In this document: in pieces, positions 46,747 through 51,882 of the stretch | How positions within the stretch are numbered: position 1 is the first letter of the stretch | How the letters are laid out: the number at the start of each line of letters is the position of its first letter | Assembly (NCBI GenBank): GCA_964016885.1 | Contig: OZ024740.1 | Span: 335,730,001 to 335,794,000 of the forward strand | Direction of reading: 5' to 3' | Origin: Eledone cirrhosa | Taxonomy: Eukaryota | DNA: 64,000 bases | Program-made: the position numbers and the translations under genes | The notes under the pieces: model-generated | Database searches by the model: none | The model's input: only the letters and a program-made list of their open reading frames with translations | Told to the model about the DNA's origin: nothing

Positions 46747-47159
46747 GTTTTTTTGTTTAAAATGAAATTTTGGGTACAAAACCCCAATAACTGGTTATTT
46801 AACCCCGAAGGGCCAAATAACGGACAGAAAGACCCCTCTCACGAGGAGGAGGGTGTCTTTATCAACAATTTGGTTCAAGTTTTAAACAATTTACAATTGT
46901 TTTAACGGTTAAAAATTACTATACCTTACAGAGCCGAGCCTCCGTCAACCATGGCATTCAATAATAATAATAATAATAATAATAAAATATAGTAATAATA
47001 AGACGCACGAGGTGACGGAGGTCATGAAATCGCTCCCGTAAGTTTTGAATTTTTAACATATTTAAATCATTTGTGAAATAACAACTCTTAGTACAAATGC
47101 TACGTAAAGCACCCGGCTTGAGCCCCAAAAAAATTCGGACCCAAAATATATTGTTATAA

Positions 47160-47805
47160 GGCTCAAATATTCAAATATTCAACTTTGTATTGTACACTGT
47201 ATATCCCCAAAAAAATGGCTATAAATGGAAGAAGAAGAACCCCCCCCCCCCCTCCTCTCCTCTGGCTACACTATATAGGACAGCTAAACTCACCAACACC
47301 AGAAACTAGATACACCACCCACCCCATCATCTGTGTACACTAAACACAACAGCATTTTCACCTTCACCGCCACCGCTCACTACGGCCATCATTACCACCA
47401 CTATCCCATCACCGCCGCCACCACCCCTTGACTCCTTCACTGCTGCTGCCACCGCTACAGCACCATCACTACAGTAATACGGCTCAAATATTCAAATATT
47501 CAACTTTGTATTGTACACTGTATATCCAAAAAAAAATAAAATGGCTATAAATGGAAGAAGAAGAACCCCCCCCCCCCTCCTCTCCTCTGGCTACACTATA
47601 TAGGACAGCGAAACTCACCAACACCAGAAACTAGATACACCACCCACCCCATCATCTGTGTACACTAAACACAACAGCATTTTCACCTTCACCGCCACCG
47701 CTCACTACGGCCATCATTACCACCACTATCCCATCACCGCCGCCACCACCCCCTGACTCCTTCACTGCTGCTGCCACCGCTACAGCACCATCACTACAGT
47801 AATAC
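47160..47805 (+). repeat. Tandem duplication of ~320 bp (47160-47480 / 47481-47805) in the Dong leader
   Basis: GGCTCAAATATTCAAATATTC...CTACAGTAATAC occurs twice, near-identical; single copy at ~30166-30486. Confidence 0.93.
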
Positions 47806-48373
47806 GGTCGCATCACCGCCACCACTGCCTCGGTATCGACATCACCACCACCACTGTCTCAGTATCGCCAACGCCGCCAGTCTCTGCTGGCTACCACTTC
47901 CACATTATAGAATTCCTACTACTAACAAAGAGGAAGGCATCAAAATATATAGATAGACTCAAAAGAAAAAAGAAAAAACAAACAAAAGCAGCACAGCAAC
48001 AACAGTAAAAAACCAGAAAAACAGAGAAAAACAAAAACAAAAAAAGAAACCCCAAAAACGTAAAGAAAATAAGAATGAAGAGAGAAGCAGGCGGACGGAC
48101 AGAGAAGAGGGGGGAAAAAGTAAAACTTAAAAAACAAAAACTAAGTCAGACATTCGAATACTACATTACAATGAAACTTATGCTTATTCATTTTTGGGGC
48201 GCTTTCTGCCCGTGTGTTTGTTTGTTTATGTGTGTCCGTATACAGCGTGGTGATAATGCCACACAAGGGCTAAGTGGGATGGCGGATCCACAGATGGCTA
48301 TGTAAACATACATTCGCCAATCCTCGATAAGAGTGTTTAAATATCGAACATAAACAGTTCGAATAACGGTGAA

Positions 48374-51300: not shown

Positions 51301-51766
51301 GGTGATCCACTGGCACCTGTGCAAAGTAAACAATCTACCACATTCTGAGAAATGGTATGAGCATAGGCCAGAGGCGGTGATGGAGAACAGTCAGGTGAAG
51401 GTGCTGTGGGATTTTAGGATACAGACGGACAAAAAACTGGAACACAATAGACCTGACCTGGTGGTTGTGGACAAAGAAAAAAGATCGTGCCTGATTGTGG
51501 ATGTGGCCTGCCCGTTCGACACGAGAGTGCAAGAGAAGGAGAGGGAGAAAATTAACCGATACCAGGACCTAAAGTGGGAGGTGAAAAGGATTTGGAACTG
51601 CCATGAAGTCAAAGTGATCCCGATTGTCATAGGCGCACTGGGGACTATCTCCAAAGGTTTCCAGGGATGGTTAAAGAAAATCGGCCCCTTCACGCTTTTT
51701 GGAACGCTTCAAAAGGCATGCTTGCTTGGAACGGCAAGAACCCTCCGATACGTCCTGAATATCTGA
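48374..51766 (+). CDS. R4/Dong single ORF: Myb-like N-terminus, RT, CCHC and PD-(D/E)xK restriction-like endonuclease (1130 aa)
   Basis: [92 protein letters not shown]. Confidence 0.96.
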   Translation: METRTSCDRLSPNRCPLAQQQEPDCQPNTADVGGRRRRKGARTNWTKELNRTVMQCYLKSNPKERGYRRRMHNIWNEIGLFKLDEQKLAGQARVIRTNGWISELELEELSRENGLEMAGVVCQTSEPAGNEGEEVLRTEEPPEADNDLNTEINNTWNRDTATEEMNADGLGQDSVDILNLVVDELNNDSGRPMNLRFVDRKKLKETTAKVNKVIPYLEARSLHQCNNILKATANTVRKLLGIKARGNNRQERAEPWWKKRLSGQIGEMRNDIGKLESLLNGTLKNIGTKNRLEIKYKTRSKKLNIIIEELKQRIVAKSAKIRRYENRVSQYKQNRMFDNNQKMLFGQLEGKERGNDLIPGAEQAKTFWRGIWEQDVRHNAQAGWIETVQREIGEQAQQQTDLSITVETLKGQAKKLTNWKSPGPDGVQGYWIKHLTSLHPKLTAMFNDCLVSGEVPEWLTKGTTVLIMKDRIKGNDVTNYRPITCLPVMWKLLTSIVSEEICHHLHTNNLLPNEQKGCRKKSRGTKDQLLIDKMVMGNCRRRHTDLAMGWIDYRKAFDMVPHSWITKSLEIFRVADNIRQLLGRSMGSWETELTSTGVSLGSVKIKRGIFQGDSLSPLLFVLALMPLTIMLRKVRAGYKLGRGELTINHLLFMDDLKLFGKSEKELDVLVDTVRIFSSDICMQFGIGKCGVIVMRRSRLSRSNGIQIPTGEMIKEIDSEEGYKYLGVLEADGIKNKKMKELLRTEYIRRVRSVLKSHLNSRNAISAVNSRAVSIIRYSAGILRWNVAEQKEMDRKTRKLLTIYNMFHKRSDVDRLYLRRSEGGRGLISIEDCVQMEKNNLYKYVTYSKEPMLRAVLKEGTVGQGIPKEEITSRRKSSLKGKSLHSTFFEKTEFRDPQRWNWLRRGDLKKATEGMLMAGQEQALKTKWLKHHIYKEEASPLCRICGEREETVAHIVSECKHLAQTHYKGWRHDVMGRVIHWHLCKVNNLPHSEKWYEHRPEAVMENSQVKVLWDFRIQTDKKLEHNRPDLVVVDKEKRSCLIVDVACPFDTRVQEKEREKINRYQDLKWEVKRIWNCHEVKVIPIVIGALGTISKGFQGWLKKIGPFTLFGTLQKACLLGTARTLRYVLNI

Positions 51767-51882
51767 GGCTGCAGGTAGTGGCTTGATATTCAATCCAACG
51801 GACTTTCCAGTTAACCAACATCAATGACTGAGATTCAAGGAATAACAATAACAGTAATAATAATAATAATAATAATAATAAT

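Follow-up and report, generated by a model that had tools for sequence, protein, structure and literature searches.

We identified a full-length Dong-like non-LTR retrotransposon of the R2/R4 type, with a restriction-like endonuclease (RLE), at 47002..51840 on the + strand of the window (the whole 64-kb stretch of DNA that was analysed). This copy, A2, belongs to the youngest subfamily (Y) of its family, family A, in which 29 sister copies are 99.7-99.8% identical to it, several of them alignable with A2 from 47002 onward. Its single ORF (48341..51766, + strand) runs for 1141 amino acids from stop to stop, with the first ATG at 48374, and residues 487-738 (49799..50554, + strand) form a reverse transcriptase (RT) domain (Pfam RVT_1, E=1.9e-22). 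The top PDB matches of the A2 protein are R2 proteins (E=1e-30). Reading the translation by eye, we found what we take to be a CCHC zinc knuckle at 51194..51247 and a PD..D..K restriction-like endonuclease motif at 51449..51560, both on the + strand; the endonuclease region had no Pfam match in a profile search. TAA repeats, (TAA)n, forming either a tail or a target repeat, follow the element at 51841..51882 (+ strand). They also stand ahead of its 5' end (~46961-47001), and lie directly 3' of 142 of the 144 family copies that have a 3' end. A single ORF with RT and without an APE domain is a trait of the Dong/R4 clade that A2 possesses, and the ORF, the RT domain, the putative knuckle and PD..D..K motif and the TAA flanks all fit the assignment of A2 as a Dong-like element.

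The 5' leader of A2 contains a tandem duplication of ~330 bp (47153..47807, + strand), in which 47153-47482 and 47474-47807 are 96.4% identical. The number of units varies from one to three among young copies (L003, L014, L022, L024, L027). No ribozyme family was matched in the 5' region of A2 at E<=1 in an Rfam search for an HDV-like ribozyme. Similar short motifs, TGACG followed by ATGAAATC, occur at the 5' end of A2 (47002-47040) and at ~825-865, just upstream of the ORF of a second family A copy, A1. The shared TGACG motif, which in A2 has no Rfam match, is possibly a promoter or RNA element.

A1 (449..4395, + strand) is a decayed copy of the older subfamily O, with a reading frame interrupted by stops and deletions. 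It is 92.8% identical to A2 over the ORF and has 29 relatives at 95-97%. Family E, a second Dong-like family with 34-42% amino-acid identity to A2, is represented at 30619..35150 (+ strand) by a copy whose ORF is cut into 1030 and 208 amino acids by a frameshift at 34367-34469; a family A leader fragment (30056-30615, 80-85% identical to the A2 leader) lies immediately upstream. At 21347-22043 there is a heavily decayed Dong-like RT remnant that reads FGISKC, and at 62070-63040 an inverted repeat of 350 bp with 96% identity. An intact Tx1-like element with ORF1 and an APE-RT ORF2 (40890..46960, - strand) lies head to head with A2, and a 3' fragment of a Tx1-like element (51883..52030, - strand) lies tail to tail with it, an older Tx1-like copy (~52111-56250) standing beyond this fragment. 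Dong-like and Tx1-like elements are inserted in opposite orientation in common TAA repeats and form long nested arrays (4395-4600, 8509-8850, 40877-41270, 51841-52140). Both the Tx1-like element and family E served as control lineages, with 4,437 and 2,975 motif matches in the genome, respectively.

The place of A2 in family A

The initial annotation of this DNA had reported that A2 differs from A1 chiefly by A>G on the sense strand, and had interpreted A2 as a candidate for one ADAR-hyper-edited RNA written back into the genome. The counts were reproduced exactly: in the 550 aligned bases of A2 49955-50504 there are 26 sites with A in A1 and G in A2, 8 with G/A and 5 with T/C. Over 48341-51830 the two copies differ at 230 of 3469 aligned positions (93 A/G, 30 G/A, 38 T/C, 12 C/T), which involves 9.5% of A2's G and 6.1% of A2's C (P=0.015). 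These differences are not assembly errors, since both alleles are present in read-derived contigs of public runs.

The proposed direction of change, with A2 as the derived copy, held for most sites: 73 of the 93 A/G sites separate the young subfamily of A2 from the older one of A1, while at 18 the change is G>A and confined, or almost confined, to A1. The opposite reading, A1 as a derived, G>A-mutated copy, was rejected, as it accounts for those 18 sites only. Among the outgroups that had been invoked, the decayed RT remnant does keep FGISKC; family E is a weak outgroup: of the 31 aligned A>G amino-acid changes, it has the older residue at 8 and the young one at 4. An extension of the bias into the leader had also been described. 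The sites at 47807, 47810 and 47818 are real, but they have 5' G/C neighbours, belong to two different late steps and lie in a poor-quality alignment. Across this low-complexity, gapped and poorly aligned leader, A>G (12.9%) and T>C (16.8%) are not asymmetric. The ORF is open as claimed, but because of youth and purifying selection (non-synonymous/synonymous rate ~0.3) and not because A>G changes spare stop codons.

Only 2 of the 93 A/G sites are private to A2, and 91 of the G alleles are present in at least 28 of the 29 near-identical young copies. The best 40 genomic matches to A2 are all near-identical to it; such a match set is biased toward A2, hence a motif containing four of the G alleles was counted separately, with 1,502 matches in the genome and 0 for the reversed control. 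Among 91 copies picked by position from the first 100 motif matches, no copy exceeded 6 A>G changes beyond the majority sequence. A search of A2 for dense private A>G found 2 such changes among only 6 private changes in all. A2 is itself very young and unremarkable among the ~1,500 near-identical young copies of an active Dong-like LINE. Genome-wide, the family has ~6,000 candidate copies.

The tree of family A is a ladder in which the young group is nested and derived. From the oldest to the youngest group, divergence from the group's own majority sequence is 2.55, 1.94, 1.55, 1.40, 0.99 and 0.08%, and GC content rises along the ladder from 43.0% to 46.2%. In intermediate copies the 150 stem changes are present as nested subsets, with 29% to 100% of the derived alleles. 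Adjacent G's were gained separately: five copies have G at 50133 and A at 50132, and 9 copies are in a half state at 49702/49703. The A>G cluster singled out by the initial annotation (50124, 50125, 50132, 50133, 50143 and 50152; 50124..50152, + strand) is subfamily-wide and arose on three different branches. The pairwise A1/A2 spectrum speaks for a single editing event, but with G alleles common to a large subfamily, gained stepwise, and few private changes, the single-event claim is refuted and we give it almost no credence. What the family comparison does support is an asymmetric spectrum with an ADAR-like 5' neighbour, which belongs to the source lineage and not to one copy.

No hyper-edited Dong copy was found among 181 long copies, the maximum being 6 A>G per 150 nt. 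A three-letter scan of the collected loci against A2 likewise gave none, its one signal being a subfamily difference of 7 sites. Two motif probes for double edits, each limited to a single site, had 0 matches. Within the family, A>G was densest in a private AAAA>GGGG change of an old copy (L118, equivalent to 49274-49277). Two other older copies (L038 and the second copy in L055) contain patches of young-subfamily alleles, which suggests gene conversion or template switching between subfamilies.

Substitution spectrum of the source lineage

A parsimony tree of family A was built from 182 of the 299 copies, without the recombinant L038 and copies with fewer than 2400 aligned bases. Five root-proximal branches, holding 95 of the 381 trunk changes, were dropped because rooting on one tip distorts them, which leaves a trunk of 286 substitutions. 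A>G makes up 119 of the 286 (9.8% of A), followed by G>A with 51 (5.5%), T>C with 48 (6.6%) and C>T with 18 (2.9%); A>C and T>G rates are low (0.6-1.4%). The excess of A>G over T>C is 1.5-fold (P=0.019 overall, P=0.05-0.06 on the stem alone) and is also seen at synonymous positions, where 60/296 A>G compare with 34/274 T>C (P=0.013). A tree-free comparison of majority sequences concurs, with A>G at 70 of 150 changes; its forward/reverse ratios, 70/20 for A>G and 27/7 for T>C, show a similar enrichment of both over their reverse. Singletons that arose after insertion are strand-symmetric (G>A 21.5, C>T 22.4, A>G 9.1 and T>C 7.8 per 100), and tip changes have the usual symmetric pattern, mostly G>A and C>T.

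The trunk A>G changes have a distinct sequence context. In a comparison matched for codon position and synonymy, the 5' neighbour of the 117 A>G changes in the ORF was A in 64 (42 expected), T in 28 (17), C in 9 (23) and G in 16 (35), giving A or T at 92 sites against 59 expected. The excess is present in the older trunk (39 vs 23) and in the younger trunk (53 vs 36), and T>C changes on the trunk have no mirror context (24 vs 24 expected). A context of 5' U/A and 3' G had been described in the initial annotation. Its 5' half is borne out, with A/T preferred and G depleted, but the 3' G enrichment occurs in terminal changes as well and is not specific. AA>GG changes on the same branch number 4 on the trunk against 0.45 expected and 8 on terminal branches against 1.06, three of the 8 coming from one AAAA run. 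When branches were permuted, the clustering of A>G within 30 nt was of marginal significance (P=0.06); a branch is not equivalent to one event. Private changes show the 5' context bias in one age class (58 vs 42) and not in the youngest (15 vs 13.5, n=26).

The encoded protein has changed with the spectrum: A>G accounts for 57 of the 132 non-synonymous changes on the trunk, and 23 of these 57 are K>R. Along the lineage the number of lysines declines from 113 to 99 and that of arginines grows from 83 to 94. The earliest branch has 25 A>G among 43 changes and could conceal one moderately edited founder. The source lineage thus has a real bias, consisting of a sense-strand A>G excess, a 5' A/T context and AA>GG pairs.

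Candidate causes of the A>G excess

One truly hyper-edited element was found in the same genome. A Penelope insertion (L262, ~1490-5030) has one arm in which all 92 differences are A>G, the mirror arm showing T>C instead; the 5' neighbour in the A>G arm is T in 43%, A in 25%, C in 13% and G in 7%. This neighbour preference predicts the rates on the Dong trunk (rho 0.77), and the fitted fraction of changes following the Penelope motif is 0.77 there (CI 0.53-0.98), compared with 0.0 on the antisense strand, 0.03 in the Tx1 lineage (CI 0-0.44) and 0.20 in most tip changes.

We lean towards low-level ADAR editing of the element RNA, fixed by repeated retrotransposition, as what may lie behind the A>G excess. 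In each cycle, host ADAR would act on a small number of adenosines where the RNA is locally paired, reverse transcription would fix these as G, and the resulting copies would become the next sources. We propose that heavily edited RNAs are dead ends and that, therefore, only light editing would enter the trunk. The additional A>G in WA context would represent this light A-to-I editing, and the parallel T>C excess, with some of the A>G, would be wobble error of the reverse transcriptase. Editing of the sense RNA cannot cause T>C, and the T>C enrichment counts against ADAR. The extra A>G among the 286 trunk changes can be put at ~39 from the strand difference, 67 from a WA model or 92 from the Penelope model. 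We regard as evenly balanced the broader proposition that host ADAR is a leading mutagen of a live LINE lineage, having contributed up to a third of its substitutions, with much of the change in its protein, and pushing it toward G.

The double-stranded substrate would be supplied by local folding of the RNA. The flanks of trunk A>G sites are predicted to be more paired than those of matched A's (unpaired 0.482 vs 0.533, P<0.001, for 99 of the 119 sites and with several tests run), and no excess pairing is predicted for the flanks of T>C or of terminal changes. In the one RT-domain segment that was folded, the predicted structure was no better than that of shuffled sequences (z=0.0). Each 500 nt of the ORF has 11-26 trunk A>G changes, with the peak over the RT region. 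Antisense read-through from convergent Tx1 neighbours, which the initial annotation had suggested as the source of dsRNA, is not supported by the data: A>G changes are evenly spread and do not pile up at the 3' end, a convergent neighbour is present in 28 of 85 copies, the intact upstream Tx1-like element lies head to head with A2, and the Tx1 lineage lacks the motif.

The context data can also be read as retrotransposition copying error, in which G is placed opposite T/U (or C opposite A) by the element RT, by RNA polymerase II or by a translesion polymerase in second-strand synthesis, T>C arising at one step and A>G at WA at another. WA is a hotspot of polymerase eta (cf. titles cited in PMC11817618), and tandem changes are likewise known from this enzyme. 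A pure WA model fits the trunk best: the log-likelihood of 'WA plus flat' is -292.8 and that of the Penelope motif -296.4, a difference of 3.6 log units. A 5' T is as favourable as a 5' A, and a 5' C as unfavourable as a 5' G, which counts against ADAR. The lack of any hyper-edited Dong copy among the 181 long copies or with the two motif probes is likewise as expected of copying error, and both A>G and T>C are elevated, on the trunk of family A and in family E alike. An R2 RT is described as erring mainly by transitions, with T the replaced base in 47% and C the commonest misincorporated one, under a strand convention that is ambiguous (PMC11331410). For octopus, a reduced 3' G preference of editing has been reported (PMC5625713).

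The control lineages divide the evidence on copying error. The internal branches of family E (L348-L417), with 80 changes, have more T>C (27, 3.3%) than A>G (23, 1.6%), a strand ratio opposite to that of family A; A/T is on the primer side in 18 of the 23 A>G and 21 of the 27 T>C, as expected of a polymerase. Because family E has a related RT with T>C above A>G, an A>G excess is no constant property of RTs of this class. Tx1 internal branches have 31 A>G and 15 T>C among 186 changes (P=0.035), without the Penelope motif. These counts exclude a branch beside L322 with 142 of the 328 changes, which rests on a partial copy and on outgroups of 72-83%; with this branch kept there are 73 A>G and 25 T>C, still without a 5' bias. 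As judged from these comparisons of sequences, the A>G excess is lineage-specific, and an apparent AT>GC error component is common to both Dong-like families. Copying error is opposed by the missing mirror context of T>C in family A, by the reversed strand ratio of family E, by paired flanks and AA>GG pairs that are peculiar to A>G, and by the existence of the hyper-edited Penelope retrocopy; we hold it to be the main rival, possible but less likely than light editing.

The rise in GC along the ladder, the joint increase of A>G and T>C and the recombinant appearance of some copies would also be compatible with selection among source elements, or GC-biased gene conversion, favouring G/C (through a less A-rich RNA or K>R). 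Neither process predicts a 5' A/T context on one strand, tandem AA>GG changes or low A>C and T>G, and the Tx1 lineage has no net AT>GC trend. We consider this explanation unlikely, and return to light ADAR editing as the preferred reading.

Relation to known systems

Edited retrocopies are usually regarded as dead scars. Should ADAR be responsible in family A, RNA edits would become heritable and go on propagating, and editing would drive both the succession of subfamilies and the base composition of a live LINE. Should polymerase error be responsible, the ladder would still record the in vivo errors of an RLE-type RT, for which such spectra are rare. With either cause, substitutions on the LINE trunk depart from the host mutation spectrum, which is relevant to the dating of copies.

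Family A resembles Dong of Bombyx mori and other R4-clade elements in its single ORF with RT, C-terminal putative zinc knuckle and RLE motif, and TAA-repeat site; Dong has been placed in the R4 lineage, with upstream TAA repeats (PMC3774820). The likeness comes from the ORF and motifs, and family A differs in being a single ladder-like lineage of thousands of copies with no match to an HDV-like ribozyme. With the hyper-edited Penelope element of the same genome it shares A>G on one strand, a 5' A/T preference and fixation in DNA. In Penelope, however, 89 of the 330 A's of one arm were changed privately in one event, whereas in the Dong lineage about one A in ten was changed, the changes are common to every descendant, and the ORF is under selection.

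APOBEC-edited LTR retrotransposons of vertebrates, as described in PMC4866542, likewise bear the footprint of a host deaminase in retroelement DNA, polarised against the subfamily state. Their changes are G>A from cDNA editing and are clustered in single copies (PMC4866542), whereas those of the Dong lineage are A>G, dispersed and cumulative. A search of the openly accessible literature, main texts only, turned up no account of ADAR-type change accumulating along the source lineage of a LINE, and the term 'ADAR' has 0 occurrences in the searched passages of a review of transposon base composition (PMC9099904). For Alu, a role of ADAR in subfamily evolution 'has not yet been determined' but is called logical to assume (PMC4982230). 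Compared with the Alu proposal, as set out in that source, the Dong lineage is an autonomous LINE with a resolvable ladder, which permits a test.
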